Below, one piece after another: positions 190 to 50,714 of a stretch of DNA of 55,093 nt (position 1 is the first letter of the stretch; each line of letters starts with the position of its first letter). The translations under genes and the position numbers were made by a program. The notes beneath the pieces are model-generated. The model saw only the letters and a list, made by a program, of their open reading frames with translations, ran no database searches and was not told the origin of the DNA. Source of the stretch: Nanobdellota archaeon (lineage in GTDB: Archaea; Nanobdellota; Nanobdellia; Pacearchaeales; GW2011-AR1); assembly GCA_039714095.1 (NCBI GenBank), contig JBDLJZ010000001.1, positions 1 to 55,093 of the forward strand. The letters run 5' to 3'.

Positions 190-239
190 ATTTTGGGTGA
201 CCACAAATTTACTTTTTCTTCTTTTTTGTGGACACCTCT
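190..239. repeat. left arm of composite inverted repeat bracketing the fic gene
   Basis: Box1 attttgggtgaccacaaa (190-207) and box2 gtggacacctct (228-239) are 20 nt apart. Both recur in inverted orientation with the same 20-nt spacing at 1146-1197. Confidence 0.75.
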
Positions 240-1138: not shown

Positions 1139-1145
1139 ACTATAT

Positions 1146-1197
1146 AGAGGTGTCCACGTTTTAAATATTTTTAGTTTTTTGTGGTCACCTCCAAAAT
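1146..1197. repeat. right arm of composite inverted repeat bracketing the fic gene (overlaps the likely fic promoter)
   Basis: agaggtgtccac (1146-1157) is the reverse complement of box2. tttgtggtcacctccaaaat (1178-1197) is the reverse complement of box1 with 1 extra nt. The AT-rich TATA-like spacer ttaaatattttta lies between the boxes. Confidence 0.75.
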
Positions 1198-1387
1198 GAA
1201 CTCTCTAAAATGCATATTTTGTGTTGACGCCCCAACCGTACGATTAGAATAAGTTTAACGCTCTTTATTTAATATTTAATTAATCTAAGATGTTAAAGTT
1301 TTTATACTTTTTGATTATTTTTGTAATCTTCTACATAGGGTCTTACACTTAAATTAAATATATAAGTTCAAGTTTATTAAAAAATTA

Positions 1388-4087: not shown

Positions 4088-4164
4088 ATTCCAAACTGAT
4101 TTTTAATAAATAATTTCTAAGAATTAACAATAACTCATAAAAACACCTTATTCTATCCAGTTTT

Positions 4165-5706: not shown

Positions 5707-5707
5707 T

Positions 5708-6610
5708 ATGGCAGTTCCAGATTTTCAATCAATAATGCTCCCTTTATTGAAGTATCTACAAGATGAAAAAGAACATACATTAAGAGAAGTAATTGAACAT
5801 ATTTCTAAAGAATTTAATTTGACAGATGAAGAAAAAATGATATTATTACCTTCAGGGAAACAACCAACTATTGATAATCGTGTAGGTTGGGCAAGAACAT
5901 ATATGAAAAAAGCAGGGTTTATTCTTATGCCCAGTAGAGGATATATGAAAATTTCAAAAAAAGGTTTAGAAGTATTACAACAAAATCTTCCAAAAATTAA
6001 TATTGCATATTTAAAAAAATCTCCAGAATTTGTAGAATTTCAAACAATGAAGTCCGAGAAAGTAAAAGATTCTGCTAAAATTTCAGAAGATAATGAAGAT
6101 GAGACTCCCGATGAATTAATGGAAAGAGGAAACAAATTAATTAATTCTAATCTTATTCCAGATGTTCTTTCCGAATTAAGATCTTGTGATCCTTATTATT
6201 TTGAAAAGATTGTTGGGAATCTTTTAGAAACAATGGGATATGGAGATTTTGAAGTGACTAAAAAATCAAACGATGGAGGAATTGATGGCATTGTAAATCA
6301 AGATAAATTAGGCATAGATAAAATATTTTTTCAGGCAAAAAGATATGCGGAAAATAATTCTGTAACTGCTCATGAAGTTAGAGATTTTGTTGGAACTCTT
6401 GAATTAAGTGGTGTTAATAAGGGAATTTTCATTACTACTTCAAAATTCCCTTCCAACACTCAGGAATTGATACGTGGAGCACAAAAAAACATTATTTTAA
6501 TTAATGGGCAAAAACTTGCAGAATTAATGATTGAATATAATTTGGGAGTTTCTATTGAAAGAGTTTATAAAATTAAAAAGATAGATTCAGATTTTTTTAG
6601 AGAAGATTAA
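5708..6610 (+). CDS. mrr: Mrr-family type IV restriction endonuclease
   Basis: N-terminal Mrr_N-like winged helix (VPDFQSIMLPLLKYLQD). C-terminal catalytic core DGGIDGIV...IFFQAKRY. The start codon is 1 nt after the stop of the upstream gene. Confidence 0.85.
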   Translation: MAVPDFQSIMLPLLKYLQDEKEHTLREVIEHISKEFNLTDEEKMILLPSGKQPTIDNRVGWARTYMKKAGFILMPSRGYMKISKKGLEVLQQNLPKINIAYLKKSPEFVEFQTMKSEKVKDSAKISEDNEDETPDELMERGNKLINSNLIPDVLSELRSCDPYYFEKIVGNLLETMGYGDFEVTKKSNDGGIDGIVNQDKLGIDKIFFQAKRYAENNSVTAHEVRDFVGTLELSGVNKGIFITTSKFPSNTQELIRGAQKNIILINGQKLAELMIEYNLGVSIERVYKIKKIDSDFFRED

Positions 6611-6728
6611 AAATGAAAGTAATAATGCATAAATCTTTGGAGAAGTATTGAGATGGCTACGAAGGCAGAGGTTGAAATAGTAGATGGATTATATGAAATT
6701 ATAAAAACTTAATTTAATTAAAAATAGG

Positions 6729-7286
6729 ATGGTAGCATATAAAAATTTCTGGTCATTGAATACAGATGAAGCAGTTGTAACAGGAATTTTAAGAGAAAAG
6801 ACCCCTAAAGATATTGATGTTCTTATGCCAATTAATGCACAAATGAAAGACGTTGATTTAGTTTTAATGGATTTTACTAATAAAAAAAGCATCACAATTC
6901 AAGTCAAAGGAAGCAAGGCATACGAGCCAAAGAAAAAAGAAGTTGAGAAATATGGAGAAGGATCTAATGGTTGGTTTTTTCTAAAAAAAGATATTATACA
7001 TAGGTCAGAAGCAGATTACTTTATTTTTTTAGTTTATGTCATATCTGAAAACGAAAAAATTGGAAGAAGATTTATTGAACCCCATACAATAACAATCCCA
7101 ACAAAAAAATTACAAGAATTATGTTCAAAACACAAAAAACCTCATCCAGATAGATATAGTTTTTATTTCTGGGTAAACCCAAAAAAGAAAATTGCTTTTG
7201 ATTGGAGAGATGAGCAGTTTGATGTAACAGAGTATTTAGATAAGAATGGTTTTGAAAAATTGAATAAAGAATTTGAAAAAGAATAG
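6729..7286 (+). CDS. hypothetical protein with a possible PD-(D/E)xK-like nuclease fold
   Basis: ILRE...DVDLVLMD...ITIQVKGSK resembles an E/D...D...(E/Q)xK arrangement. Co-directional with the helicase/DUF2779/Mrr genes. Fold assignment is inference only. Confidence 0.35.
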   Translation: MVAYKNFWSLNTDEAVVTGILREKTPKDIDVLMPINAQMKDVDLVLMDFTNKKSITIQVKGSKAYEPKKKEVEKYGEGSNGWFFLKKDIIHRSEADYFIFLVYVISENEKIGRRFIEPHTITIPTKKLQELCSKHKKPHPDRYSFYFWVNPKKKIAFDWRDEQFDVTEYLDKNGFEKLNKEFEKE

Positions 7287-7302
7287 AAAATAATTCATAA
7301 AT

Positions 7303-8427
7303 CTATTTTCCGTTTTCTTCTATAAATTCTTCATAAGTTCCTGAAGGTCTGAAATCTATTGAATAAGTTTTTGAGTCCAATCTTTCTAAAACTACCGAGT
7401 CAAATCCTATCTCTTGCAATTTTTCATAAGTTAATAATTCTTTTTCTTTTAGACCTAATACATTTCTCAATAACCATTTTCCAAGGTCTGCATTGTGTTT
7501 ACTCATTAACGCTTTTGAGCCATCTTGACACACTTTTGCGGATAATATTTGTCCATCGGGCAATATAAGATTAAATGGCTTATCTCTTCCGAGAAAAAAT
7601 CCAGGAAATCTTTTATGAATCCACGTTGGAATTGGGACATAGATTTCATCAGGATTTCTTTTTCTTCCTCCTGCATTCCATTGATTAAGTCCACTTTTTG
7701 GATATACAATTTTGCCTTTTGAAGTAATGGAATAAAGGGGCAATACAACATGAACTTTCAATTTTGCCTCAGTGTAATATGTTTTCTTTATATCTAAAAA
7801 TTTCTCCTCTATGACTTCAAAAGGATCATCAAGAATTTTTACAGGAACTTTAAGAAGAGTGTTTTTTGTATGAAATCTTTTGTATAATGTGCTTTTGGTT
7901 AAATTAAAAGAATATTCATTTTTAGAGTCTTTAAAAGAAATAGTATTATTGCTTGATTTAAGATGTGTTATTTTATCAATATCAATTAAATCCATAGGGC
8001 ATTCAAAAGTTGAAATTTTACCTTCATCTCTAACAATGCAATGGTATATCATTTCATTTAATCCATAAATTCTCTTTGTTGCTTCTATCCTTTTATTTCT
8101 TAACTCTGCAACTTTTTTAATTGCATCTTCTTTGGAGAGATTTCTAAATTGTAAATTATCTCTATTGAATTCTGCCACCTTTTGCAATGTTTTCCCATTT
8201 CCATTAACAAAAGTTTTTATTCCAACCCCAACAGTTCCAAGTGATGCGTCCGCAGAAACATCTGAACGAGAAAGATTCTTTGCAGAGAAAGATTTACAAA
8301 AAAGATTTTCCGTAACTCTGTAATTTAAAAAAGGTATTGTGCTTTCAGAAAAAAGCCCAGTCAAAGACCCGAGAATTTTTAACATCTTTTCATAATAAAG
8401 ATGTTTTGAAGACTTTTTATTCACCAT
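7303..8427 (-). CDS. putative type II restriction endonuclease (partner of the adjacent m5C methyltransferase)
   Basis: 374-aa ORF starting 1 nt downstream of the stop of the co-oriented cytosine-5 methyltransferase. The call rests on gene context. I recognise no catalytic motif. Confidence 0.55.
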   Translation of the reverse strand: MVNKKSSKHLYYEKMLKILGSLTGLFSESTIPFLNYRVTENLFCKSFSAKNLSRSDVSADASLGTVGVGIKTFVNGNGKTLQKVAEFNRDNLQFRNLSKEDAIKKVAELRNKRIEATKRIYGLNEMIYHCIVRDEGKISTFECPMDLIDIDKITHLKSSNNTISFKDSKNEYSFNLTKSTLYKRFHTKNTLLKVPVKILDDPFEVIEEKFLDIKKTYYTEAKLKVHVVLPLYSITSKGKIVYPKSGLNQWNAGGRKRNPDEIYVPIPTWIHKRFPGFFLGRDKPFNLILPDGQILSAKVCQDGSKALMSKHNADLGKWLLRNVLGLKEKELLTYEKLQEIGFDSVVLERLDSKTYSIDFRPSGTYEEFIEENGK

Positions 8428-8428
8428 C

Positions 8429-9373
8429 TTACAGAACCTTTACAATCTCTTTTGCAACTCTTTGAATAACTGTAACATTAACACTATTTCCTGCCTGATG
8501 ATATAATTTTGCATCTGCTATTTTTGGAAGTTTCCAACTTTTAGGAAAGCCTTGTAGTCTAAAACATTCAAAAGGTGTTAATTTTCTTATTCCTTTGTGA
8601 TCTAAAATAATTGGGACATTGTGTCCTCCTGAACCCATATTTGCAGTTAGAGTAGGACAAACTTTACTCTTATTTTCTCGCACATATTTTCTCCGCCATT
8701 GATAAACTGTATCTTTGGAGGTGATTTCTTTTTTTAATTCAGGATAGATAAATTTACCTTTATAATAGTATTTTTCGTCTACATTTTTCTCTAAAAAATC
8801 TTTAAAGCTCTTATTGAGTTTTGTAGTCTTGGGGAACTTAAATTTCTTGGCTTTCTTATGATCTAAAAATCCTACAATGATAATTCTTTCTCTATTTTGT
8901 GGAAGATTTCCATGAGTCATTCCATTTAACACTTCAGATTTGACCATATAACCCAAATCTTCCAATGTTTTTTTAATCACCTTAAAGGTTTTTCCGTGAT
9001 CGTGAGTCTTTATATTTTTTACATTTTCCAAGAATACAATTTTTGGTTTTTTCTCTTCTATTATTTCAGCTATCCTAAAAAATAAATTTCCTCTTCCTTT
9101 TTTGTCTTTAAATCCTTGCCTCTGTCCTGCAATAGAAAAAGGTTGACAAGGAAACCCTGCCAATAAAATCTCAAAATTTGGAATATCTTTTATTGGATAC
9201 TTGCAAATATCCGCAATTGTTAATTTAACTCCTTTGTGATTTAAATCAAAAGTATCTTTACAGGATTTTTCAAAATCATTAGAGAAAACTGTTTTAAATC
9301 CTGCTTTTTCAAAACCCAACCTAATGCCCCCAACACCTGCAAATAAATCTATTGCCCTCTTTTTAATCACCAT
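8429..9373 (-). CDS. DNA (cytosine-5)-methyltransferase
   Basis: Motif I DLFAGVGGIRLGF, motif IV GFPCQPFS, motif VI ENVKN, LTPFECFRLQGFP, motif X QAGNSV. Confidence 0.95.
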   Translation of the reverse strand: MVIKKRAIDLFAGVGGIRLGFEKAGFKTVFSNDFEKSCKDTFDLNHKGVKLTIADICKYPIKDIPNFEILLAGFPCQPFSIAGQRQGFKDKKGRGNLFFRIAEIIEEKKPKIVFLENVKNIKTHDHGKTFKVIKKTLEDLGYMVKSEVLNGMTHGNLPQNRERIIIVGFLDHKKAKKFKFPKTTKLNKSFKDFLEKNVDEKYYYKGKFIYPELKKEITSKDTVYQWRRKYVRENKSKVCPTLTANMGSGGHNVPIILDHKGIRKLTPFECFRLQGFPKSWKLPKIADAKLYHQAGNSVNVTVIQRVAKEIVKVL

Positions 9374-9567
9374 ATTACATAAAAATCAGCATTGTTTTTA
9401 TATGTTGCCCATGCTCTTTTTTTAGCTTCAAAAATTCTTAAAATAGTTTTTCTTTTTAACTTTCTTTTCTAGTTTTCTTTCTATCTCTTTCAAGTCATTC
9501 ATTATCTTATCAAATTTATCTTCAACTTCCATTTTTTATTCTCATTAAGATATTTTTATACGAAAAA

Positions 9568-9729
9568 TCAAATTTCTAAGTGCTTCTTAATTTTTTCATA
9601 AAATGCCTTAAGTTTTTCCCTATCTCCAATATAAGCTAATACTTTCTGTTTAACCTTCCCATCAACAAGCTTCCCTTCAACTAAATAATAGTAATCTTTT
9701 CCTTTAATCAATTTCTTTCTTATATACAT
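9568..9729 (-). CDS. small hypothetical protein (53 aa)
   Basis: Hand translation gives MYIRKKLIKGKDYYYLVEGKLVDGKVKQKVLAYIGDREKLKAFYEKIKKHLEI. It is below the ORF-track cutoff. The YYYLVE..DGKVKQK.LAY.G pattern resembles N-termini seen in archaeal mobile-element proteins (recollection, not verified). Confidence 0.3.
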   Translation of the reverse strand: MYIRKKLIKGKDYYYLVEGKLVDGKVKQKVLAYIGDREKLKAFYEKIKKHLEI

Positions 9730-9893
9730 ATTAGGCACAAGGATTCTTAATATATAAATCTTATTATTTAGAGTAAATCTCTAGAATGAATATGGTATCT
9801 CCTATATGAAATGTATTCTGTGTGAAATGTATATAAATAATAAAACAAAACATTTATAAAGATTAGGCACAATATATATAGGTAATAATAAAT

Positions 9894-9916
9894 AAAAAAA
9901 GGAGCCCGAAGGCTCC
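9894..9916 (-). terminator. GC-rich UUCG-capped hairpin followed by a U-run (minus-strand reading)
   Basis: Minus strand reads GGAGCC-UUCG-GGCUCC followed by UUUUUUU. There is no annotated minus-strand CDS immediately upstream. Confidence 0.35.
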
Positions 9917-10002
9917 CCTGTCTCGTCGCTAAACAAAGACAAAATGAAAAGAAGTTATAGATATAAAAACCTTATTGTAAATCAACTTAGGAGAGATTGC
10001 TA

Positions 10003-10407
10003 ATGCAACAAGTAATCTATCTTAAAGAAAATTCTGATAGTATAAAGAATGCCAAAACAATCTTTGATAATATAAGTAAAATCAAAGTAGATTACGAACA
10101 AGAAAACTTTTTAGTTTTCTTCTTAGATACGAGATTAGAAATAATTGACACAGAGGTTTTATTCAAAGGTGGATTAAACTCTTGTTTGATAGACCCCAAA
10201 ACAATTTTTAGAAAAGCTTTGTTGAAAAATTCAGCTGCAATTATTGTTTCGCATAATCATCCAAGTAGAAATTTAAGCCCATCAAGTGAAGACATAGAAA
10301 GTTTTAACGAATTGAAAAAGATTGGCGAATTATTAGATTTAAGTGTTTTAGATAGTATTATCTTTGATGAAAATAAATATTACTCTCTTTCTGAAAATGA
10401 TAATTAA
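10003..10407 (+). CDS. RadC-like JAB/MPN domain protein
   Basis: IIVSHNHPSRNLSPSSEDI matches the JAMM-like HxHPSG...S.xD signature of RadC/DUF2466. ATG at 10003 is preceded by GGAGAG. The track start at 9997 is a TTG. Confidence 0.8.
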   Translation: MQQVIYLKENSDSIKNAKTIFDNISKIKVDYEQENFLVFFLDTRLEIIDTEVLFKGGLNSCLIDPKTIFRKALLKNSAAIIVSHNHPSRNLSPSSEDIESFNELKKIGELLDLSVLDSIIFDENKYYSLSENDN

Positions 10408-11092
10408 AACTTACAAAGAATTAGAGTTCTTCTTAAAAATGTTCAGAAATGGAAATGCGGAGCTTCTGATAGTCGAATCAAGGGGTGGATTAGGAAAATC
10501 AAGGCTTACAGAAAAAATGCTTAAGGATAAGGTTTACTTAAGAATTTTAAGCCATATAACGCCAATGCAATTTTATATTTTAGGATATAAATTTAAGGAC
10601 TTGCCTATTGTTATAGATGATTGTGATGGGCTTTTATCTAATGACCAGAATATTTCTTTGTTGAAAATGTTTTGCGAAACAAGGGAAACTAAAAGAGTTA
10701 GTTGGCTTAGTACAACAGGGGCTCTCAAAGAACAAGGAGTTCCAATGAATTATGAAACGCAATCCAAGGTTTTAATTTTGACTAATGATTTTCAAAATTT
10801 ATCTAAAAAAGTAGGTGCATTACAAGACAGAGGTTGGCACATCTCATTTGATCCCACACATAAGGAAATATTAAATCGAATTAAACAAATAAAGAAATTT
10901 TGCAGTTTAAATTTATCTGAGAATGAAATCAATGAAGTCTATGATTTAATTGAGAAATATTCTTCTGTTGGTCAATTTAGCCTTAGAACTTTTGTAAAAG
11001 GATTATTTTTGTATAAAGAATGTAAAAATACTGAGACTAATTGGAAAGAAATTTTATTGCAAGAAATGAAAGTTAATTCTAAATTATTTTGA
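10397..11092 (+). CDS. P-loop NTPase, plasmid or virus-like
   Basis: Walker A-like ESRGGLGKSRL and Walker B-like LPIVIDDCD. ATG at 10397 overlaps the RadC stop by 11 nt. The longer track start at 10364 would overlap more. Confidence 0.5.
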   Translation: MIIKTYKELEFFLKMFRNGNAELLIVESRGGLGKSRLTEKMLKDKVYLRILSHITPMQFYILGYKFKDLPIVIDDCDGLLSNDQNISLLKMFCETRETKRVSWLSTTGALKEQGVPMNYETQSKVLILTNDFQNLSKKVGALQDRGWHISFDPTHKEILNRIKQIKKFCSLNLSENEINEVYDLIEKYSSVGQFSLRTFVKGLFLYKECKNTETNWKEILLQEMKVNSKLF

Positions 11093-11362
11093 TTTGTCTA
11101 ATTTTTCAATATCATTTAACAAACTCTTGCCTTTTGTAGAAATTTTATAGAATCTTATGAGCTTTTGCTTTGGATTTAAACATTCAGCAAAACCTTTTTT
11201 GACTAATTCATTTAAGGTTCTACTGACAGAATTAAAATGTAAACCTGTTTCATCTTTTAGCTGTGTTGGAGTTTTTGGATTTCCAAGCAATTTTAGGATA
11301 TTTTTTCTATGTTTACTCCCCAAAATATAACTAATGTTTTCCCAACTACCTTCTTTTTTCAT
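11084..11362 (-). CDS. winged helix-turn-helix transcriptional regulator (ArsR-like)
   Basis: HRKNILKLLGNPKTPTQLKDETGLHFNSVSRTLNELVKKGF is a typical wHTH. Start trimmed to MKKEGSW at 11362 because the upstream 21 codons are Cys/Phe-rich, low-complexity sequence. Confidence 0.65.
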   Translation of the reverse strand: MKKEGSWENISYILGSKHRKNILKLLGNPKTPTQLKDETGLHFNSVSRTLNELVKKGFAECLNPKQKLIRFYKISTKGKSLLNDIEKLDKSK

Positions 11363-11462
11363 AAAAACAAAAATACAACAATAATTAAAAGCAAATCCAA
11401 CATCAATCCAACAACTATAACACAAAACTTATAAGTCTGAAAGAATTAATTTATTTAATAAA

Positions 11463-11603
11463 ATGGGTAAGCTCTTTGATTATTGTATGACAGGGGATTG
11501 GGAAGAAACGCAAAGAATAGCATTATATAAAAAGTTGGGCAAGAAATTGGATGATTTATCTCCTGAACAGCTAAAAAAGATTAAAAAAATAATGAATGAA
11601 TAA
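11463..11603 (+). CDS. small hypothetical protein (46 aa)
   Basis: Hand translation gives MGKLFDYCMTGDWEETQRIALYKKLGKKLDDLSPEQLKKIKKIMNE. No motif. Confidence 0.25.
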   Translation: MGKLFDYCMTGDWEETQRIALYKKLGKKLDDLSPEQLKKIKKIMNE

Positions 11604-11632
11604 TATAATTCTCATACCCAGATTATACAAAA

Positions 11633-11676
11633 TTCTATGGATTCCATAGAACTATAGACTCCATAGTTCCATAGAT
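11633..11676. repeat. iteron-like cluster of TCCATAG motifs including a 9-bp-arm palindrome
   Basis: TTCTATGGA-T-TCCATAGAA at 11633-11651, followed by actCCATAG and ttCCATAG copies up to 11676. Confidence 0.7.
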
Positions 11677-11801
11677 TTAGGCATTTTTTGTCGCTCTAGA
11701 AAGGTATTCCCTTTGTCAGAGATAATTTATACAATAAGATTTTGTTTTTTTGGTATTTTTTGTGCGGTGTCTCTCTTTTCTTAAGGCTCATCTAAATAAA
11801 A

Positions 11802-12032
11802 TCATTTCTCTCTTACATCATATATTTCCCCTCCTACAATTTTTATCATATCCGTCTTAACAAACAAATCTAAAATTTCTTTTCCAACCCTTATACTAGA
11901 ATGATGTTCTAAAGCAAACATTGCCAGAAATTTTTTTTCATTTATTGTACAATCTGAATTTTCATTGAAAACTCTTTCTATATTAAACTTAATCCAACCT
12001 ATTTTATCGGTTCGTGTTATTTTAGTTCCCAT
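11802..12032 (-). CDS. hypothetical protein (76 aa)
   Basis: Start trimmed to MGTKITRTDKIGW at 12032. That is 2 nt after the stop of the upstream DUF457 gene, which implies operon packing. The longer track ORF would overlap the neighbour. Confidence 0.45.
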   Translation of the reverse strand: MGTKITRTDKIGWIKFNIERVFNENSDCTINEKKFLAMFALEHHSSIRVGKEILDLFVKTDMIKIVGGEIYDVREK

Positions 12033-12034
12033 TT

Positions 12035-12403
12035 TTAATTTAACCCCCTTCGAGTTAGGGCATCGCCTAATAGATGCGTAATCATTCCAGCAAGAATCGA
12101 CATTATAAAATACCAATCTGAAGAACGGAAAAACCCTAATGTAAATACAACAGGAATTAAAATGAATGATATCACAAAGAAGCTCTTCCATGAATGCAGA
12201 CCGACCCTATGCCAAGCACTATTCGGAGTCTCAATTCTATCTATAATAAAGCTCCCTACAAGATAAAATGGCAAATTAATTAAAATTAATTTTATAGATA
12301 TTTCTCCAATAAACTCTCCATAAAGAAATATTCCAAAAAATCCCAATAGAACTGCCCAGTAAATATGCCCGCTAAAAGAGAGACCCCGCTTACATTTAAT
12401 CAC
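12035..12403 (-). CDS. membrane-bound metal-dependent hydrolase-like protein (YdjM/DUF457-like)
   Basis: Multi-TM profile with C-terminal ITHLLGDALTRRGL, reminiscent of DUF457. Confidence 0.45.
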   Translation of the reverse strand: MIKCKRGLSFSGHIYWAVLLGFFGIFLYGEFIGEISIKLILINLPFYLVGSFIIDRIETPNSAWHRVGLHSWKSFFVISFILIPVVFTLGFFRSSDWYFIMSILAGMITHLLGDALTRRGLN

Positions 12404-12671
12404 ATTTGATTTTAAATAGACATTTAATTCCTTTTTGATTGATTTCTAAAAATCCCATATCAGATAGAAAAAATAATAATTCTTTTACCTCTTGTTTTTT
12501 GAGTGAGAAATTTCTTCCTACCTTCAGATAAATATAAGAATAAGGTATGAATCCATTAATTTTTATTCCTTTAGTATTTTGCTTTACCTCGTAGAGTCTT
12601 AAAAGAAGCTTTCCATAGAGCCCATTTAGTCGATCCTTATTAAGAGGTATTGGTTGTTTTTGTTGTATCAT
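12396..12671 (-). CDS. hypothetical small protein, possible wHTH
   Basis: 91-aa ORF at the head of a three-gene minus-strand operon. Its 3' end overlaps the next gene by 8 nt. Confidence 0.4.
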   Translation of the reverse strand: MIQQKQPIPLNKDRLNGLYGKLLLRLYEVKQNTKGIKINGFIPYSYIYLKVGRNFSLKKQEVKELLFFLSDMGFLEINQKGIKCLFKIKCD

Positions 12672-12884
12672 TTAAATTATTTGAAAGAGAAGTTGTTTGT
12701 TGTTTTTTCTTCTCTTTCTCTTTATTTTTAATTAAATCTGTTAGCGTGTTTACCCAATTTGGATTTTTTTCTTTATTCATAATTAAAAAGAGCCCACGCC
12801 CTCTTTTAGAATTTTTTTGTATAAAAATTACTTATAAAAGAATCTTGTACAAAAATTTATATACGAAAAAGTGATATTTTTTGT

Positions 12885-13427
12885 ATGGGTGATATAAATC
12901 CACCTCATTTGAAAAAAGAATTTTTTGGAAAGGGAACCTCTGTTGTTAGGAATACAAAAAATCCATATATAAATAGAGATGAAAAGAATAAAGATAAGAA
13001 AAATAAAGATGTCTCTAAAAATGATAATTATTCTATAAGCATACCAATAAAAGTAGCCAAAATTATGGGGCTTAAAAATAAACAAAGATTAGATTTGATG
13101 TATTATCTTGATAAAAAATGTCCCCAAATTATACTTTCTATACCTCCTCTTTCAGATAAAGATAGGATACAAAAAATAAAGGAAAATAAAAAATTTCTAA
13201 AAATGGGAACCTCTTCAGACGAAATAGAATTATCAAGAGAAATATATAAGTTAGAAAAAGATATAGAAAGCAATAAAGATACACAAAAAATTATATTGTC
13301 TCATCCAGAATCTTCTGATAAAAAAGAGGCAATTAAATATTTAGAAGGAAGCGAAGAAGAATTAACAGAATTACTTAAAGAATTAAAAAATGATTTAAAT
13401 GAAATTAAAGAGAAATCTTCTTCTTAA
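12885..13427 (+). CDS. AbrB/SpoVT-like DNA-binding protein with a coiled-coil tail
   Basis: ISIPIKVAKIMGLKNKQRLDLMY resembles the AbrB-type swapped-hairpin motif. The remainder is charged and coiled-coil-like. Confidence 0.4.
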   Translation: MGDINPPHLKKEFFGKGTSVVRNTKNPYINRDEKNKDKKNKDVSKNDNYSISIPIKVAKIMGLKNKQRLDLMYYLDKKCPQIILSIPPLSDKDRIQKIKENKKFLKMGTSSDEIELSREIYKLEKDIESNKDTQKIILSHPESSDKKEAIKYLEGSEEELTELLKELKNDLNEIKEKSSS

Positions 13428-14577
13428 TTAATTCCAAAATTTCTGGATCCTTAATTAGTCCATCCATAACATTATCTGTTAAACTTCTTTCTGTTTCTGC
13501 TTCAATAATCTTTTCAGCTTCCTCTTTATCTAAAACTAATCCACAGATTTTACAAAATCGGTTTGTTGCTTCATTGGTAGTATTACACTTTATGCATTTC
13601 TTAGGTTGCATAACTGGAAGGTTTGATTCTTTCTTTATCTCTACGCCGTTAGCCCTTAGCACAGCTTCATCTGTTGTTTTTCCACACATGGAAATATATA
13701 CTCCACACATACGGCTACTTTGCCCCCAACCAAGATATTGCTTCATACATGCTTCACTCATAGTAGAAGCAAGCAGCGTAGCTCTTGAATGTCTAAGTAA
13801 ATGCAAATGAACTCTTTTTTTTATTCCTGCTTTTTTCGCAGCTGTTTTTAATACTCCTGAGATTCTTGTATAACTCATTTGTTGCCCATCACTTTTTATC
13901 CAAAGAGGAGAGTTTGAATTATCATTATCAGAATGTTGATTTATCCAGTTTTGCAAATAAGGAGAACTCCATACAACTAGAATTTTTCTCATGCCAGTCT
14001 TCCCATCCACAGTTAATCTTGCACCATATTCTTCAAATGAAGTATGTTTTATTTGCATTGACCCGATTTCTCCTGCCCTACAACCTGATTCGGCTAATGT
14101 AGCAATCAAAGCTTTGTCTCTTGGATTATTACATTTTTGAATTATCTTTTTTATTTCTTCTTCAGTTAAAAGTTCTTCAGGAAGCTTACTTTTACTTCTA
14201 GGAATATTAATTGAAATCCATCTAACTCTTTCTGGATAAACCCCTTTCTCATCTATATCTTCTATAAAACGATAAAGTTTTCTTACAATTACTTTAAATC
14301 CTTTTTTTGTTTCTTCTGCTAATCCTGTTTGGTTAAGTTCTCCAATAACAGCCCTGATGTCGTTTTTTGTAGCCTCTTCAAAAGGCTTTTTCAGCATTTT
14401 AGAATACTTTACTAATTCTCCAATACATCTTTCAATTCTTGGAACTCCAATTCCTTCACTCAATAAATAATTCTTAAATTTTAATATAGTCTCTTTATTT
14501 TCTTCGAGAATTTCTTTAGATTTCTTAATATTTTTAAGTGTTCTATCAAGTCTTCTTTTGTAATTATGTATATCCAT
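13405..14577 (-). CDS. tyrosine recombinase / integrase with a C-terminal zinc ribbon
   Basis: ESGCRAGE (Arg box), HLHLLRHSRAT (HxxR), GWGQSSRMCGVYI (catalytic Tyr region), CIKCNTTNEATNRFCKICG zinc ribbon. Sits 60 nt from the tRNA-Asp 3' end. Confidence 0.9.
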   Translation of the reverse strand: MDIHNYKRRLDRTLKNIKKSKEILEENKETILKFKNYLLSEGIGVPRIERCIGELVKYSKMLKKPFEEATKNDIRAVIGELNQTGLAEETKKGFKVIVRKLYRFIEDIDEKGVYPERVRWISINIPRSKSKLPEELLTEEEIKKIIQKCNNPRDKALIATLAESGCRAGEIGSMQIKHTSFEEYGARLTVDGKTGMRKILVVWSSPYLQNWINQHSDNDNSNSPLWIKSDGQQMSYTRISGVLKTAAKKAGIKKRVHLHLLRHSRATLLASTMSEACMKQYLGWGQSSRMCGVYISMCGKTTDEAVLRANGVEIKKESNLPVMQPKKCIKCNTTNEATNRFCKICGLVLDKEEAEKIIEAETERSLTDNVMDGLIKDPEILELIKKKISL

Positions 14578-14637
14578 GTTTGCTCATAATAACCGTGACT
14601 TATAAACCACGATTACGAGCACCAAACAAAAACTAAA

Positions 14638-14794
14638 CGCCCCAACCGGGAGTTGAACCCGGGTTTCTTGCGTTCTGCACATTTTCACCTTCTCTCGCGT
14701 TAGCGAGCATATTTAGGAAGGTTGACGGTCAAGGAAACCTATGTTTCCTTACCTGCACGACAGGCAAGTGTCTTAGCCGTTGGACAATTGAGGC
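14638..14794 (-). tRNA. tRNA-Asp(GUC) with an 85-nt intron at the canonical 37/38 position
   Basis: Hand-folded. Acceptor GCCUCAA/UUGGGGC, discriminator G. D arm GUCC..AGAC with GG in the loop. Anticodon stem CUUGC/GCAAG, loop CU-GUC-G|intron|C. T arm CCGGG-UUCAACU-CCCGG. Exons 14794-14758 and 14672-14638. The BHB has a central helix CUGU/GCAG flanked by 3-nt bulges. Confidence 0.85.
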
Positions 14795-14856
14795 AAATTA
14801 ATATAATTATCTACTAAATTCTTTTTAAAATTAACTATCTCAACTTGCCAATAAAA

Positions 14857-15395: not shown

Positions 15396-16659
15396 TTTTC
15401 TTCTTACTATTCATATAAGGTTGTAAAACTTTCGGAATATTTATGCTTCCGTCTTTATTTTGATTATTCTCTAAAATAGCAACCATAATTCTAGAAGTTG
15501 CAATTACTGTATTATTTAATGTGTGCGCAAAATATCTCTTCCCTTTATTTTCAATCTTAATATTCAAACGTCTTGCTTGCGACTCTTCCATGTTTGTTAA
15601 GGAAGTAATTTCTTTGTATTCATTTTGACGAGGACTCCAAACTTCTAAATCACACGACTTTGCTTTTAAATTTGCCAAATCTCCTGAGCAACATTCCAAA
15701 ACCCTAAAAGGTAAATCTAATTTCTTAAATAAATCAACAGAATATCTAAGCATTTTATCATACCATTTATATGATTCTTTTGGCTCGCAAATAACAATCA
15801 TTTCTTGCTTGTTAAATTGGTGCGTTCTAAAAATTCCTTTCTCATCAATTCCATGTGAACCAATTTCTTTTCTAAAACACATAGAATAACCTGTCTGCAA
15901 AATAGGCAAATCTTTTTCAGAAAAAGTTTTATTCATAAATTGTCCAATTAAAGTATGCTCTGAGGTTGCAATTAAATACAAATCCCCTCCTTCAATCTTA
16001 TAAGACATTTCATCAATTTCTTCATTAGAATAAACTCCTCGCAAAATATCACCACGAATCATCAACGGAGGCTCAACATATAAAAAATTTTTTTCAACCA
16101 TAAAATCTCTTGCAAAATTAATTAACGCCACATTCAGTAATGCTAAATCTCCTTTAAGATAATAAAATCCTTTTCCAGAAACTTTAGCAGAATCATCAAA
16201 ATCTAAAATTCCTAATTTCTCTCCTAATTCAACATGACTCAAAACTTTGAAATCAAATTTTTTTATTTTACCAAATTTTTTAATCTCAACATTCTCAGAA
16301 TCGTCTTTTCCAATAGGAACTGACTCATGCATAATGTTTGGGATTTTAAACATAATTTCTTTAATTTTCCTCTCTAACTTTTTTCTTTTCTCTTGAACCT
16401 TTTCAATCTTAGTAGGAATTTCCTTTGCACTTTTTAATTCCTTTTCAACCTTTTTTCCAGATTTCTTCAATTCACTAATTTTCTTAGAAATTTTATTTCT
16501 ATCACCTCTCAAGTTGTCTTCATCAAATTTCAACTTCCTCCATTCCTCATCCAGCTTTTTAACTTCATCAACCAGTTTCAATTTATCATTCTGAAATTTT
16601 TTCTTAATATTTTCCTTAACTAAATCAGGATTTTTACGAATCAAATTAATATCAATCAT
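15370..16659 (-). CDS. serS: seryl-tRNA synthetase
   Basis: N-terminal coiled-coil arm starting MIDINLIRKNPDLVKENI. Class II motif 2 FRKEIGSHGIDEKGIFRTHQFNKQE. C-terminal GSINIPKVLQPYM. Confidence 0.95.
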   Translation of the reverse strand: MIDINLIRKNPDLVKENIKKKFQNDKLKLVDEVKKLDEEWRKLKFDEDNLRGDRNKISKKISELKKSGKKVEKELKSAKEIPTKIEKVQEKRKKLERKIKEIMFKIPNIMHESVPIGKDDSENVEIKKFGKIKKFDFKVLSHVELGEKLGILDFDDSAKVSGKGFYYLKGDLALLNVALINFARDFMVEKNFLYVEPPLMIRGDILRGVYSNEEIDEMSYKIEGGDLYLIATSEHTLIGQFMNKTFSEKDLPILQTGYSMCFRKEIGSHGIDEKGIFRTHQFNKQEMIVICEPKESYKWYDKMLRYSVDLFKKLDLPFRVLECCSGDLANLKAKSCDLEVWSPRQNEYKEITSLTNMEESQARRLNIKIENKGKRYFAHTLNNTVIATSRIMVAILENNQNKDGSINIPKVLQPYMNSKKKIEKKKQTR

Positions 16660-16971
16660 AAATTAATTTTACAAAACCAACTATTTAAAAATTTTGGAAA
16701 AATAATCCTGAAAGGCGAGTGTAACAATAATTACGAGTATAAAGATTTTTTAAAAAAAATCTGCAATAAATTAATTTTACAAAACCAACTATTTAAAAAT
16801 TTTGGAAAATTAATCTTAGAAAGGTGAGCATCTTCTGAAATTTCTAATAAATGAGCGAAAAAATTAAAAGTGAATTTAAAGAAGATTTCACGGAGTGCGA
16901 ATAGAGCGTTTCAATAATTACGAGTATAAAGATTTTTTAAAAAAAATCTGCAATAAATTAATTTTACAAAA
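16660..16971. repeat. duplicated intergenic promoter-region repeats
   Basis: A 42-nt unit aaattaattttacaaaaccaactatttaaaaattttggaaaa occurs at 16660-16701 and 16768-16809. A 60-nt unit caataattacgagtataaagattttttaaaaaaaatctgcaataaattaattttacaaaa occurs at 16725-16784 and 16912-16971. Each copy of the 60-nt unit contains the palindrome AGATTTTTTAAAAAAAATCT. Confidence 0.85.
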
Positions 16972-17028
16972 ATACTCTATTTAAATTTAATCAAAAAAAT
17001 ATATAAACTTATTTTAACAATTTAATTT

Positions 17029-17700
17029 ATGGTGATGACACAAGTTAGCTCTGTTTTTTTAGATGCTTATAATTCATTCATTGAAATCCTTCCACTCTGG
17101 GTGCAAAATTTTATAAGTTTTTTTTTGTTAGTTTTATTAATTGTTGCTTATTCAATTATGGTCTGGAGATTTTACCAATTTGTTTCAAAAAAAAATCCCT
17201 TAGGATTAAATCTTAATGAAAAATACAAACCAAATGAACACTCTTTTGGAACAAGATTTGTCGTAGGATTACTTTATTTTGTAGAATATATTTTAATATT
17301 ACCATTATTAATTTTTCTAATTTTTGGGATTTTTACTTTGTTCTTAATTGTTCTTTCTTCAAGCGAAGATGTTTCACAAATATTAATTATTTCTGCAACA
17401 GTAATAGCTTCAATAAGAATCACAGCTTATTACAATGAAAAACTTTCACAAGAAATTGCAAAAATCCTCCCATTTATGTTATTGGCTGTAGCAGTTCTTA
17501 ATCCAACAACATTCACACAAGTCCAATATATAGAAAAAATATTTAACCACCTAATTAATATTCCAAATTTCCTAAGTCAAATTTGGAGTTACCTACTGTT
17601 TATAATTATCATAGAAATTACTCTTACTTTTTTTGATTTGATTTTTTCTTTGTTTAATTTACATGAACCAGAAAAAGCAGAAGAAAAAGAAGAGAAATAA
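17029..17700 (+). CDS. integral membrane protein
   Basis: 223 aa with multiple TM segments and an acidic/Lys tail EPEKAEEKEEK. Confidence 0.6.
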   Translation: MVMTQVSSVFLDAYNSFIEILPLWVQNFISFFLLVLLIVAYSIMVWRFYQFVSKKNPLGLNLNEKYKPNEHSFGTRFVVGLLYFVEYILILPLLIFLIFGIFTLFLIVLSSSEDVSQILIISATVIASIRITAYYNEKLSQEIAKILPFMLLAVAVLNPTTFTQVQYIEKIFNHLINIPNFLSQIWSYLLFIIIIEITLTFFDLIFSLFNLHEPEKAEEKEEK

Positions 17701-18372: not shown

Positions 18373-18484
18373 ATAATTATAATTAAATAAATATATTTTT
18401 TGTTTTCTTTTTTTAAATTCTTAAGGCACAAAAAGGTTTTTAAACTATTTTTATGATTGATTGTTAACTAAATGATTGCCTCCT

Positions 18485-18569
18485 ATGTGGTATCAGTTGG
18501 ACTGCACGAAAAGATACCACCTTCAATGCTTAGAGGAAGTTTAAGCGAAGAACCAGGAGGTATCCTCAC
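18485..18569 (+). promoter_or_regulatory. unclassified structured RNA leader, copy A (upstream of rps10)
   Basis: 8-bp helix GUGGUAUC(18487-18494)/GAUACCAC(18513-18520) encloses an 18-nt loop AGUUGGACUGCACGAAAA. A second stem CUUC/GAAG follows. Then comes a purine-rich GGAGG box in a small hairpin 10 nt before the ATG. Homologous copies lie at 49371-49546. Confidence 0.65.
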
Positions 18570-18878
18570 ATGCCAAAAGTAAGAATAAAATTAAATAGTA
18601 CTGACATAGAAATGCTTAATAATATTTGCGAAACTATTAAAGATATTGCAAAAAAATCAGGAATTACAATCTCAGGACCTGTTCCACTACCAACAAAAAA
18701 ATTAAAAGTCACAACACGAAAATCACCTTGTGGAGACGGAACAGCAACTTTTGATAGATTTGAAATGAGAATACACAAAAGGTTAATTGATTTACCTGCA
18801 AACGAAAAAGTTTTGCACCAAATTATGAAACTTCAAATTCCAAAGAACGTTAACATAAAAATTGAAGTAAAAGAGTAA
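18570..18878 (+). CDS. rps10: 30S ribosomal protein uS10
   Basis: RIKLNSTDIEMLNNICETIKDIAKKSGITISGPVPLPTKKLKVTTRKSPCGDGTATFDRFEMRIHKRLID is the typical archaeal S10 sequence. Confidence 0.95.
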   Translation: MPKVRIKLNSTDIEMLNNICETIKDIAKKSGITISGPVPLPTKKLKVTTRKSPCGDGTATFDRFEMRIHKRLIDLPANEKVLHQIMKLQIPKNVNIKIEVKE

Positions 18879-18965: not shown

Positions 18966-21092
18966 ATGGAAGAGGAATGGCCAATTTACAAAAAAGAACT
19001 TCTGATTTTAGGAAATCAAAATAGTAATGTTAGTATATGTACGCTTTGGACTCCCAAAGAAAATGTCTTAAGAAAAATTTCTAAAAATAATTTTTTAATT
19101 ACTGGACAATGTTATAGCAAAAGTGAAGGTCCAAGTTTAATTTTAAGACATGCTTTATTAAATAAGAAATTAAGATATATTATTCTTTATGGAGCAAATG
19201 TAAATAAAACTGCAGAAATTTTATTAGCAATAAAAAATATGGGTGTAGATGAAAATCATAAAGTTATAGGATTTTCAGATGCTGAAATAGAAAAAGAAAT
19301 CACTTTAGATGCAATAAATAGATTTAGACAAAATGTAGAAATAATTGATAAGAGAGATTTAGAATTAGAAGAATTAAATAATTTTATTGAATCATTGCCC
19401 AAAAAAGAATCTTGGGGAGAACCAGAATTATTTCCTAGAATCCCTCCTAAAAAACCAGAATTCTTTCCTTCAGAGGAAACAGGGTTTGTAATTAGAGGAA
19501 AAACTGTTGGGAATGTGTGGTTAGAGATTTTACAAACTATAAGAAAATTTGGTAAAATAAAAAAGAGCCAGTATTCAGATGACCAACAAGAAATAGTTAA
19601 TCTAACAAGTATAATTACTGATGAAGATCCAAATAATCTAAGTTGGGAAGAATGGTTTCAATTTTCTAAAGAACATTTTCAAGAATATTTACCGCAATTG
19701 ATGACATCTGATTTAATTGGGGATGTTGAATATACTTATGGTTCTCGTTTAAGAAATTTTAAAGGAATTAATCAAATAGAATCAATTATTGAAGAATTAA
19801 AAAAAGCAATATACTCAAGAAGGGCTGTTGGCGTAACATGGGATATAGAAAAAGATCATAATAATTCTCACTGTCCATGTTTGGATTTAATTCAACCATT
19901 AGTACAAGATAAATTACATATGACAGTCTATTTGAGAAGTAATGATATGTTTAAAGCATATCCAGAAAATGCCTTGGCTTTACGAATGATTCAAAATGAA
20001 ATTGCGCAAAAAGTAGGAGTCGCATTAGGGTCATTAATTATAATTTCTAATAGTGCTCATATTTATTCTTCAGATTGGGAAAAAGTAAAGAATATTTTAG
20101 AACAATATTCAATAAAACAAACTAGACAATCTGATCCTCGTGGGAATATTCTTATAGAAACAGAAAACAAAAAAATAAAAATTATTCATCAATCTCCTGA
20201 AGGTGTTGGTATAGATGAAATTTATGCAGAGAACTCTTTAGATGCTTGTTCTAAAATAAATGCAAAAAAAATGATTTCCCAAATAAATCATTCTTTAGAT
20301 ATTGGAGGGGAAATCGCAAAAGCAGAAATTGCCATTAAAAATAATCTGAAGTATGTTCAAGATAAGCCTTTAGAGATAAGAAAAAAAGGAAAGATAATTT
20401 TAGTTGAAGGAACAGATTGTTCAGGCAAACAAACTCAAACAGAATTATTATTAAAAAAACTAAACAGCGAAGGAATTCCTTGCAAATTAATGAGTTTCCC
20501 TCGTTATAATACCCCAACTGGAAGAATTGTTGGACAAAGTTATCTGGGGAAAGTAAAAGATTATTGGAAGGGAGATTCTGGATGGTTTGGAGAAGCTGAT
20601 TCATTAGATCCAAAAATTGCTTCATTATATTATGCAGCAGATAGAAGAGCTTCTGTTGAAGAAATAGACAAAATTTTAGATTCAGGTTGTAATTTAATTT
20701 TAGATAGATATTATACATCTAATATGGCTCATCAAGGTGGAAAAATAAAAAATATAGAAGAAAGAAAAAAAATATTTGAATGGTTGCAAAATTTAGAATT
20801 AGATATTTTAAAATTACCAAAAGAAGACATTGCGATATTTTTACATATGCCTTTAGAAGTTTCAAAAATATTACGGACAAATAGAACTGGAGAAAATTTA
20901 GATAACCATGAAAATAATGAAGAGCATTTGAGAAGAGCAGAAGAAACCTATAACCAGTTATCAGAATTATACAATTGGAAAAATATTAGTTGTGCTCCAA
21001 ATAAAACAATTGAATCTCTCAAAACACCAGAAGAAATTCATGAAGAAGTTTACAGTGTTGTAAAAGATTTCCTAACACAAAACAAATCTTAA
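18966..21092 (+). CDS. multidomain fusion: MtrA-like N-terminal domain, thymidylate synthase (ThyA)-like, DUF4346-like, thymidylate kinase
   Basis: ThyA-like HCPCLDLIQP and YLRSNDMFKAYPENALAL...ISNSAHIYS. DUF4346-like DPRGNILIE...HSLDIGGEIAKAEIAIKNNLKYVQDKPL. Tmk P-loop ILVEGTDCSGKQTQ plus MSFPRY. N-terminal WPIYKKELLILGNQNSNVSICTLWT resembles MtrA-like domains (recollection). Confidence 0.75.
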   Translation: MEEEWPIYKKELLILGNQNSNVSICTLWTPKENVLRKISKNNFLITGQCYSKSEGPSLILRHALLNKKLRYIILYGANVNKTAEILLAIKNMGVDENHKVIGFSDAEIEKEITLDAINRFRQNVEIIDKRDLELEELNNFIESLPKKESWGEPELFPRIPPKKPEFFPSEETGFVIRGKTVGNVWLEILQTIRKFGKIKKSQYSDDQQEIVNLTSIITDEDPNNLSWEEWFQFSKEHFQEYLPQLMTSDLIGDVEYTYGSRLRNFKGINQIESIIEELKKAIYSRRAVGVTWDIEKDHNNSHCPCLDLIQPLVQDKLHMTVYLRSNDMFKAYPENALALRMIQNEIAQKVGVALGSLIIISNSAHIYSSDWEKVKNILEQYSIKQTRQSDPRGNILIETENKKIKIIHQSPEGVGIDEIYAENSLDACSKINAKKMISQINHSLDIGGEIAKAEIAIKNNLKYVQDKPLEIRKKGKIILVEGTDCSGKQTQTELLLKKLNSEGIPCKLMSFPRYNTPTGRIVGQSYLGKVKDYWKGDSGWFGEADSLDPKIASLYYAADRRASVEEIDKILDSGCNLILDRYYTSNMAHQGGKIKNIEERKKIFEWLQNLELDILKLPKEDIAIFLHMPLEVSKILRTNRTGENLDNHENNEEHLRRAEETYNQLSELYNWKNISCAPNKTIESLKTPEEIHEEVYSVVKDFLTQNKS

Positions 21093-29743: not shown

Positions 29744-30490
29744 TTAAATTATCTTGTAAACAGCAGTTACTCTCGCACTAACTTCTTTTTCACCAGGTTG
29801 AATACTTGAAACAGCTTCTTTTGCCAAACCCACGTCCCCCTCTGTAACTCCTGATGAAGAATACAATCTCCATGGATAATATCCAAAGTCATTCACATTT
29901 ACAGAAACTAACTTGCCAACTTTTTTATCAAATCCTATTGCCACTGACTCTGCCTTTGTCTTTGCGTCCTCTGCTGCAAGTTTTATAGCTTCAGCTTTAT
30001 ACTTATTTTGAGATTCCTGACTTAACTCAAAATTAATATAACTTATCCCTGCTCCAGCATCTACCCCAGCATCTATAATCTTGCCCAATTTATCTGTTTC
30101 TTCAGAATCAACCATGACTTTTATTGAATGAATTGCTTTAAAGCCTTTATCAATTCTCTTACCTTCAGTCCAATCATAATCTGGATAAATGTTATAATTC
30201 TCAGTTATAATATCTTCTCTTCCAAATCCTTGATTCCCAAGCGTTGCAACAAGTTTTTCCAATATATCAGAATTAGCATCTTTTGCTTCAGAACTTGTGT
30301 TTCCTTTTGTTTCAATATTAAAATAAACTCCAATTTCATCAGGCATTGCTTTTACAATCGCCATACCCTCCACACTAACAGTGTTCTCTGAACTCACAGG
30401 TTTAAACATAAATAATGCTGACAAAGCTATAATTAAAACTACTGCTGAAACAATCGCTGTTATTGTTATTGTTGTGTTTTGTTTTTTCAT
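29744..30490 (-). CDS. SIMPL/DUF541 (BP26-like) secreted protein
   Basis: N-terminal TM/signal, then VSVEGMAIVKAMPDEIGVYFNIETKG and a C-terminal EVSARVTAVYKI pattern typical of DUF541. Confidence 0.7.
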   Translation of the reverse strand: MKKQNTTITITAIVSAVVLIIALSALFMFKPVSSENTVSVEGMAIVKAMPDEIGVYFNIETKGNTSSEAKDANSDILEKLVATLGNQGFGREDIITENYNIYPDYDWTEGKRIDKGFKAIHSIKVMVDSEETDKLGKIIDAGVDAGAGISYINFELSQESQNKYKAEAIKLAAEDAKTKAESVAIGFDKKVGKLVSVNVNDFGYYPWRLYSSSGVTEGDVGLAKEAVSSIQPGEKEVSARVTAVYKII

Positions 30491-49262: not shown

Positions 49263-49370
49263 AATAAATTAATTTTTGAAGAATATATAAATATTTGTTT
49301 CCTATTATTTTTTCACAACAAACTTTATAACTCTTCTTTTTCTAAAATTTCAATGGTGATGATTAACTTT

Positions 49371-50713: not shown

Positions 50714-50714
50714 A

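Follow-up and report, generated by a model that had tools for sequence, protein, structure and literature searches.

What kind of element is the roughly 85-nt stretch that directly precedes rps10, the gene for ribosomal protein S10, on the archaeal contig JBDLJZ010000001.1? The window analyzed here is the whole 55,093-nt stretch of that contig, and coordinates below refer to it and to its plus strand unless stated otherwise. An earlier note had read the sequence before rps10 as a structured RNA leader, shared with two further copies and following the logic of a translational riboswitch or a protein-binding leader. We find all three copies, and comparison with relatives points to a different origin. 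Specifically, we lean toward the view that they belong to an ~88-nt, lineage-restricted dispersed repeat, a "leader cassette" inserted between the promoter and the coding sequence of ancestrally leaderless genes. As such, the tempting call of a new riboswitch gives way to a better-documented story of insertion. The S10 protein and a nuclease discussed below place the contig in the Nanoarchaeota/Pacearchaeota (DPANN), and to our knowledge almost no non-coding elements have been characterized in DPANN archaea.

Three units and the sites that lack them

Three homologous units (about 88 nt overall) are present where the earlier note had placed them: unit A at 18485-18569 (85 nt), and units B (49371-49460, 90 nt) and C (49461-49546, 86 nt) in tandem. 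The two loci are 31 kb apart, and the loop core GGAYTGCACRAAAAGA occurs exactly three times across the whole window. The units have a G+C content of 45-52%, compared with 28.5% for the window. Each begins with (T)ATG, the G of which is the first base of helix 1 (H1), an 8-bp helix closing an 18-nt loop. On the 3′ side of H1 there is CCTTC, followed after 10-11 nt by GGAAG(G), and the unit ends in a purine box (GGAGG/GAAGG/GAGGG), a CCTC word, and ATG. The box resembles a Shine-Dalgarno (SD) sequence and, as had been claimed, is sensibly spaced, the GGAGG-type motif lying 9-10 nt 5′ of the terminal ATG. The ATG that had also been reported after every copy is, in the case of B, the first codon of unit C and no gene start.

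Unit A, as an insertion, separates the ancestral start region from the rps10 ATG (18570). In it, the opening ATG (18485-87) leads into H1 (18487-94/18513-20) with its loop (18495-18512), followed by CCTTC (18520-24), GGAAG (18535-39), the SD box GGAGG (18556-60), and CCTC (18564-67). The same order is found in unit B, with H1 at 49373-80/49399-406 (6/8 pairs), the loop at 49381-98, CCTTC at 49407-11, GGAAGG at 49422-27, and GAAGG at 49445-49. Unit C has H1 at 49463-70/49489-96 (8/8 pairs, two of them G-U), the loop at 49471-88, CCTTCC at 49497-502, GGAAGG at 49512-17, and a further helix (H3) at 49521-29/49538-46 that carries the SD-like GAGGG (49533-37) in its loop.

The clearest evidence for insertion comes from the gene downstream of B and C, which encodes a PD-(D/E)XK (RecB/Cas4-like) nuclease of 307 aa (49547-50470). 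Its TATA box CTTTATAA (49323-49330) is conserved in 2 contigs used for comparison (L141 and L138; L-numbers denote contigs of relatives or metagenomes), and the first ATG follows 22 nt on. This ATG belongs to the first copy of a 12-nt direct repeat, ATGGTGATGATT (49353-49364), i.e. the ancestral leaderless start, now apart from the coding sequence. A 6-nt junction, AACTTT (49365-49370), separates it from unit B, while the second copy of ATGGTGATGATT (49547-49558) is the present start of the coding sequence. The L141 orthologue, whose protein is 80% identical, reads AACAAACTTTATAA, 22 nt, and ATGGTGATGATTTATTCGCATTCTCG, and is an exact empty site: the layout is that of the window minus a clean 194-nt block, with ATGGTGATGATT at both window borders (12/12 nt). 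The same empty layout is found at the nuclease gene of L138/L139. The empty site and the repeat at both borders indicate that B and C were inserted into a leaderless gene; B, C, and the 6-nt junction entered 12 nt into the gene and its first 12 nt were duplicated.

Empty sites are also found at rps10 (18570-18878, 102 aa), for which we compared contigs encoding S10 proteins 91-98% identical to that of the window. The window gene has the TATA box TTTTTAAA (18437-18444), preceded by a purine-rich AAAAAGG, and its AAAAAGGTTTTTAAAC motif also lies ~21 nt before the rps10 ATG in relatives without the unit. Specifically, L123/L124, L146-151, and L188-193 share the promoter AAAAAGGTTTTTAAAC, followed after ~20-21 nt by ATGCC(A/T)AAAGTA (ATGCCAAAAG), and have no unit, i.e. 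a leaderless layout. L123 also shares with the window a TerC-like gene upstream of rps10. In L122, a near-identical promoter (AAAAAGATTTTTAAAG) stands at equal spacing, again with no unit. The spacer between the TATA box and unit A (18445-18484) is rearranged in the window: ATGATTG occurs twice (18453 and 18472) and ATTG once more at 18460, and the spacer also contains an upstream ATG (18472-74) and GCCUCCU (18478-84).

Two likenesses between the loci are recorded here as side observations. The 5′ flank of A (GATTGTTAACTAAATG) and that of B (GATGATTAACTTTATG) are alike at 12/16 positions, which in AT-rich sequence is too weak to argue that A was copied from the nuclease locus. The GCCUCCU upstream of A resembles the CCUCCUC tail of unit B and may be the remnant of a lost upstream unit.

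Further family members were sought in other collections. A strict metagenome scan with a 20-base pattern returned 9 matches, of which 1 (L133) is a true extra copy, so the subfamily is either rare or diverged beyond the exact pattern. L133, which comes from another metagenome, matches A and C by blastn (E = 2e-13), a likeness well beyond chance, and has flanks unrelated to the window; its unit starts 21 nt after a TATA-like TTTTTAAT, and its H1 (GUGGUAUC/GAUGCCAC) gives it a stem like that of A with a 3′ half like that of C. A more distant homologue, L137, was reached through an S10 homologue (P0025) with an odd N-terminal extension and has a 92-nt leader between a promoter-proximal ATGCC and the rps10 ATG. 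With a covariance model built from A, B, C, and L133 alone, this leader is the best match in 88 kb (24.2 bits, E ~3e-4; runner-up 13.7 bits), and the match is full-length and runs up to the ATG. All 8 bp of its H1 are intact despite a completely changed sequence (GCGAUUUU/AAAAUCGC), and its 3′ half retains CCUUCA...GGAA...AACCUGGAGGU...CAUAUG.

No further copies were found with covariance model R1 in the window or in ~100 kb of relatives' DNA. Scans of viral contigs gave 30 and 0 pattern matches, none real by the covariance model, and blastn against phage genomes gave no match. A scan of genome contigs with the 16-nt loop core, a pattern too short for the purpose, gave chance matches in bacteria only, none with CCTTC following. 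The repeat is dispersed, with copies at unrelated loci and empty sites in relatives (L141/L138 at the nuclease gene, L123/L146 at rps10), and is best read as lineage-restricted.

Hairpin, loop, and Shine-Dalgarno box

H1 is formed by GUGGUAUC/GAUACCAC in A and by GCGACGUC/GAUGUUGC in C, and its pairing is perfect (8/8) in A, C, L133, and L137. The earlier note had described an 8-bp helix in all copies; this holds for A and C, while B has only 6/8 pairs, with U-U and A-A mismatches. It had also listed 5 H1 differences between A and C, each preserving pairing. Five positions do differ and all are paired, although the changes themselves were partly misread: we find 3 double changes (U-A to C-G, G-C to A-U, and U-A to C-G) and 2 one-sided changes (G-C to G-U and A-U to G-U), with no G-C to C-G and no A-U to U-A.

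Across the five-sequence alignment of A, B, C, L133, and L137, 5 of the 8 pairs of H1 changed on both sides and 94.9% of cells are paired. When H1 is scored jointly with H2, the CCUUC/GAAGG stem that follows it, none of 500 shuffles reaches the observed covariation score. Sliding the partner strand as a control lowers pairing to 44-65%, and RNAalifold independently predicts both helices. In this generic sense the unit looks like a structured RNA, with at least one helix (H1) that shows compensatory change beyond the shuffled and slid controls. Folding against shuffled sequences gives z = -2.8 for A and z = -2.6 for C, and z = +0.8 for B, which on its own folds no better than shuffled sequence.

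Support differs for the remaining parts of the structure. The CCUUC...GAAGG stem and the purine box in a small hairpin, both described in the earlier note, are present as sequences; however, H2 has no informative variation in the five-sequence alignment and is weak in L137, and the third hairpin differs between copies, being of GGAG/CUCC type with 4 bp in A and the 9-bp H3 with the SD-like box in its loop in C, and shows no covariation. G-U pairs of H1 occur in C, B, and L133. They make the hairpin strand-specific, which is compatible with an RNA and equally with a single DNA strand.

The best-conserved segment within the young subfamily (A, B, C, and L133) is the loop, with 14-16 of 18 positions alike, compared with 7-11 of 16 for the stems in most comparisons. 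The L137 loop, which reads CAGAGGAGGCAAUUUA, agrees with the subfamily at 8-10 of 17 positions.

The predicted exposure of the SD box also varies. On the sequence, CCUUC can pair either with GGAAG or with the SD-like box, which the earlier note had taken as the logic of a switch; the pairing is possible on paper, but neither alternative ever covaries. Predicted SD accessibility is 0.00 in A (fully paired), 0.85 in C (in a hairpin loop), and 0.60 in L137, i.e. opposite in A and C, which argues that there is no conserved switch. In A, the box is paired through bases outside the unit. Specifically, GCCUCCU at 18478-18484 is predicted to pair with AGGAGGU at 18555-18561, closing H1 and H2 into a three-way junction in which the rps10 SD is fully sequestered.

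A leader cassette weighed against other explanations

For most genes of the window, the TATA box ends 21-23 nt upstream of the ATG, so that they look leaderless, and GGAGG-type boxes stand before a few genes, e.g. AAGGAGGT before 29744-30490 (minus strand). The organism appears to rely on SD-dependent initiation at some of its genes. Against this background, all copies of the unit have the orientation of the downstream gene, lie exactly between promoter and start codon, and carry a correctly spaced SD box. At the nuclease locus and in L133, the presumed transcript 5′ end coincides with the start of the unit or lies no more than ~20 nt away from it. In the reading we favor, the TATA promoter of the host gene would transcribe the unit as a new 5′ leader. 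H1 would then bury the old 5′-terminal AUG, suppress initiation there, and structure the 5′ end of the mRNA, which it may also protect, while the SD box 9-10 nt before the terminal AUG would move the host gene away from leaderless initiation and make it SD-dependent. In bacteria, leaderless initiation depends on how accessible the start codon is and on the length of the leader (PMC8459731), which makes a hairpin over a 5′ AUG a plausible block. H1 would be kept by compensatory substitution since a hairpin, rather than any particular sequence, is needed.

Such a cassette would explain three things: H1 keeps its structure without its sequence, the copies lie in sense orientation directly before a start codon, and an insertion is tolerated by an essential gene. 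The nuclease locus, with its empty sites, offers a clean before-and-after case in which a leaderless archaeal gene gains a structured, SD-bearing 5′ leader by insertion of a repeated cassette, and so bears on how leadered and leaderless initiation interconvert during evolution.

The duplication at the nuclease gene has parallels at rps10 in other contigs. In L183 (945-1013; also L184-187), rps10 holds an unrelated 42-43-nt insert with a perfect 13/13-nt duplication, ATGCCAAAAGTAA. A 41-nt insert in L125 (9947-10012; also L126 and L127) lies between ATGCCAAAACTC and ATGCCAAAAGTA, which are alike at 10/12 positions, and a 23-nt insert in L142 (1965-2012; also L143-145) follows ATGTCAAATTAA, which matches ATGCCAAAAGTT at 8/12. 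These short inserts lie directly behind the first 12-13 nt of leaderless rps10. None of them shows significant likeness to the element against shuffles (p = 0.11-0.66), and we thus treat them as independent insertions. In the 3 clean cases (the window nuclease, 12/12; L183, 13/13; and L125, 10/12), the duplication begins precisely with the ATG that lies 21-22 nt downstream of the TATA box. When 196 kb were scanned for 12-mers that are anchored at an ATG and occur again ahead of long open reading frames (ORFs), these cases were retrieved and hardly anything besides. For rps10 of the window, the ATG alone is shared, and the match in L137 is degenerate (7/12).

A 12-nt duplication that begins at the ATG, the presumed start of transcription, suggests integration at a staggered break near the start site. 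Beyond this, we raise tentatively, as an unlikely yet specific idea, an undescribed process in Pacearchaeota that inserts DNA at a point ~12-13 nt inside leaderless genes and duplicates sequence from +1 (the ATG), the insert being either the structured, SD-carrying cassette or an unrelated short filler. Such a process would be tied to the start of transcription and would differ from a classical transposase, and the cassette would be a mobile "leader" suited to this niche, making leaderless genes SD-led without killing them. The length of the duplication would match the initially transcribed, scrunched bubble that precedes promoter escape, a speculative correspondence. If duplications of 12-13 nt anchored at +1 do reflect a mechanism, insertion would be targeted at the transcription start in archaea.

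A separate observation concerns a more distant nuclease orthologue, in L182 (1440-1567). Its leader is unrelated, ~125 nt long, and contains the GC-rich hairpins GAAATTTGAC-GCAA-GTCAATTTC and GCGCG-TAA-GCGC. These genes seem to acquire structured leaders repeatedly.

Several points weigh against a leader cassette. Five family members were found, which keeps the covariation statistics thin. A purely structural role for H1 leaves the conservation of the loop unexplained, and the exposure of the SD box is inconsistent, being paired in A through GCCUCCU outside the unit and exposed in C. At rps10, the spacer is rearranged, such that the old AUG is probably not exactly 5′-terminal, and no clear duplication surrounds unit A. 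We found no terminal inverted repeats linking the two ends of a single unit or of the combined B+C block. The 55-kb window also encodes neither a transposase nor a reverse transcriptase, and its recombinases are 2 tyrosine recombinases, one in an island beside a tRNA and the other Xer-like and syntenic in relatives. Mobility is suggested by the distribution of the copies together with the 12-nt duplication; the related elements at rps10 in 2 lineages could alternatively have been inherited vertically from long ago, with precise losses occurring repeatedly.

We consider it unlikely that the repeat is a selfish element acting at the DNA level, i.e. of the type of miniature inverted-repeat transposable elements (MITEs), repetitive extragenic palindromic (REP) sequences, or IS200/IS605-derived palindrome-associated transposable elements (PATEs). 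H1 would then act as single-stranded DNA, a hairpin recognized by a transposase or HUH enzyme whose gene lies elsewhere. The SD box and terminal ATG would simply have survived selection at insertion sites, with no role for the RNA. Such an element would account for dispersed copies with empty sites in relatives and for the 12-nt direct duplication around B+C. Compensatory hairpins are also typical of REP and PATE ends, and on the sequence the units tile as TATG|unit...YATG|, resembling IS200/IS605 insertion 3′ of a short target word. However, insertion of the IS200/IS605 type makes no target duplication, and yet one is present here, and the lack of terminal inverted repeats and of a transposase encoded in the window, noted above, counts against this explanation as well. 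In addition, the sense orientation, the position exactly between promoter and start codon, and the correctly spaced SD in all copies argue for selection on a transcript, and on the opposite strand A-C mismatches would stand in place of the G-U pairs of C, B, and L133.

A cis-regulatory sensor, i.e. a riboswitch or an autoregulatory leader whose loop binds a ligand or protein while CCUUC gates translation through GAAGG or the SD, is the reading closest to the earlier note, and we regard it as improbable. In its favor are the covariation of H1, the loop as the most conserved segment among A, B, C, and L133, the ability of CCUUC to pair with GGAAG and with SD-like boxes, and the presence of related elements before rps10 in 2 lineages. 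A leader dedicated to rps10 is nonetheless hard to reconcile with the absence of the unit at rps10 of the closest relatives, with the recent insertion of 2 of the 3 copies before an unrelated nuclease gene, and with a third context in L133. The loop sequence is replaced in L137, H2 does not covary, and H3 and SD accessibility vary by copy. In essence, the unit behaves as a repeated and apparently mobile sequence, an outcome that the earlier note had itself set against its proposal.

One statement of that note that stands is that the element is not recognized as any described RNA class. Searched with Rfam 15 at gathering thresholds, the whole window yields 2 tRNAs and no family at the units. 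Even at E <= 10 there is nothing at unit A, and the matches at B/C and L137 are noise, at 12.7-19.9 bits against gathering scores of 40-60 and on the wrong strand. ARAGORN finds no tRNA, and the complement of the loop sequence was not found elsewhere in the window. A kink-turn (K-turn)/L7Ae site, a hammerhead, and other small ribozymes were ruled out by inspection and Rfam. Our search of the literature found no description of such elements.

There is only a small chance that the units serve an upstream ORF (uORF), with the old 5′ AUG starting leaderless translation through them and the gene being translated by termination-reinitiation. From the promoter-proximal ATG, an open frame crosses every unit and terminates at the gene start or shortly behind it: at the nuclease, 49353-49553 ends in UAUGGUGA, overlapping the ATG, while 18472-18583 and L137 608-712 both end at the same TAA, 9 nt into rps10. 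In L125 and L142, rps10 is preceded by short uORFs and lacks an SD box. On the other side, the units hold few stops (about one per frame), which makes the open frames weakly improbable (~0.01 jointly), and the corresponding frame in L133 stops inside the unit. H1 over the AUG should also hinder leaderless initiation. Reading frames vary from copy to copy and no peptide is conserved; specifically, C is offset from A by a 1-nt indel that changes the frame although the nucleotides beyond it are conserved. The unit therefore encodes no conserved peptide, and we rejected a leader peptide because its frame is not kept. When the forward-frame translations of the units were concatenated and searched against proteins, no match appeared at E <= 10.

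Finally, an independent small RNA gene (a C/D-box or H/ACA-like guide, or another small RNA) that merely lies upstream of these genes would fit the units as GC-rich islands in intergenic DNA and the GUGAUGA word just upstream of unit B, but is highly improbable, because that word, the sole RUGAUGA, comes from the duplicated nuclease gene start (ATGGTGATGA), a CUGA D box, a tandem G-A K-turn beside H1, and an ACA box in position are all absent, the snoRNA-like Rfam match is noise (12.7 bits against a gathering score of 40, minus strand), and the unit abuts the start codon with no separate promoter or terminator.

Neighboring features and known systems

Other features of the window are noted for completeness. 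Downstream of rps10, 18966-21092 encodes a 708-aa fusion of MtrA-like, thymidylate synthase (ThyA), pterin-binding, and thymidylate kinase domains, whereas in relatives Thy1 (ThyX) or ThyA and the kinase are encoded by separate genes. The window nuclease has a C-terminal extension of ~30 aa, and 2 small ORFs (60 and 84 aa) lie at 50471-50969 between it and a PP-loop ATPase gene, while the nuclease and PP-loop genes abut in L141. The second small ORF is RelE/ParE-like by eye (YRIRIGEIRLIF), with no Pfam match at E <= 1e-5. Region 209-14800 is a probable integrated island beside an intron-containing tRNA (14638-14794, minus strand), with genes for a tyrosine integrase (13405-14577), Fic, an SF1 helicase, DUF2779, Mrr, an NgoFVII-like restriction enzyme with a C5 methylase, and RadC. 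The 2 tRNA genes found by Rfam (14638-14794, 157 nt; 36739-36884, 146 nt; both minus strand) presumably have long introns, and ARAGORN finds neither. In the minus-strand leader of the Fic gene (ORF 209-1138), 1139-1200 holds a long-range inverted repeat, GGAGGTGACCAC ... GTGGACACCTC, with SD-like/anti-SD-like pairing. The divergent intergenic region between the seryl-tRNA synthetase gene and ORF 17029-17700 contains direct repeats (16658-16984; 44-68 nt; families D9-D11 and D17) that are near-perfect (82-98% identical) and lie 108 and 187 nt apart. Lastly, ~500 nt of non-coding sequence after an aldehyde dehydrogenase gene (54213-54740) is rich in short G+C hairpins and TTCGCTATCGC/TTCGCTACGCTACGAA-like repeats, with up to 55% G+C and no Rfam match.

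The earlier note was largely right in what it observed, and the element is unclassified; it is best described as belonging with small transcribed dispersed repeats, in an unusual niche and possibly with an unusual mechanism of insertion. Well-known bacterial repeats of this sort (Correia/CREE of Neisseria, ERIC/IRU, RUP, BOX, and the Rickettsia palindromic elements) are short (~40-150 nt), non-coding, hairpin-forming, located near genes, and co-transcribed. Some of them donate promoters or processing sites and so alter the expression of neighbors, and their presence varies between close relatives. These and MITE-like elements share with the present one a short dispersed hairpin repeat with empty sites. 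No likeness in sequence to these families was seen, although no comparison aimed at it was made. By contrast, the element described here is archaeal (DPANN/Pacearchaeota), has no terminal inverted repeats, occurs in sense only between a leaderless promoter and the start codon, and ends in an SD box and ATG, with one clean case of a 12-nt duplication from the ATG.

Autoregulatory leaders of ribosomal-protein genes and SD-sequestering riboswitches resemble it in being structured 5′ leaders, here before a ribosomal-protein gene, with pyrimidine boxes (CCUUC and CCUC) able to pair with the SD. Unlike them, the element does not accompany its gene through relatives, is also found before a nuclease gene, loses its loop in a distant homologue, lacks a consistent switch, and matches no Rfam family.

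With IS200/IS605-derived PATEs and REP elements it shares structure-conserved, strand-specific hairpins that tolerate G-T, and its (T/C)ATG borders resemble insertion 3′ of a tetranucleotide; it differs in its target duplication, in having one well-supported hairpin rather than one at both ends, in its strictly 5′-leader position, and in the absence of a TnpA, RAYT, or TnpB gene from the window. Archaeal MITEs, such as the SM elements of Sulfolobus, have terminal inverted repeats matching those of a parent insertion sequence and insert regardless of gene starts. They too are small non-autonomous archaeal repeats with target-site duplications and empty sites in relatives, whereas neither inverted repeats of a parent element nor insertion blind to gene starts is seen in the repeat described here, which sits at the starts of genes.

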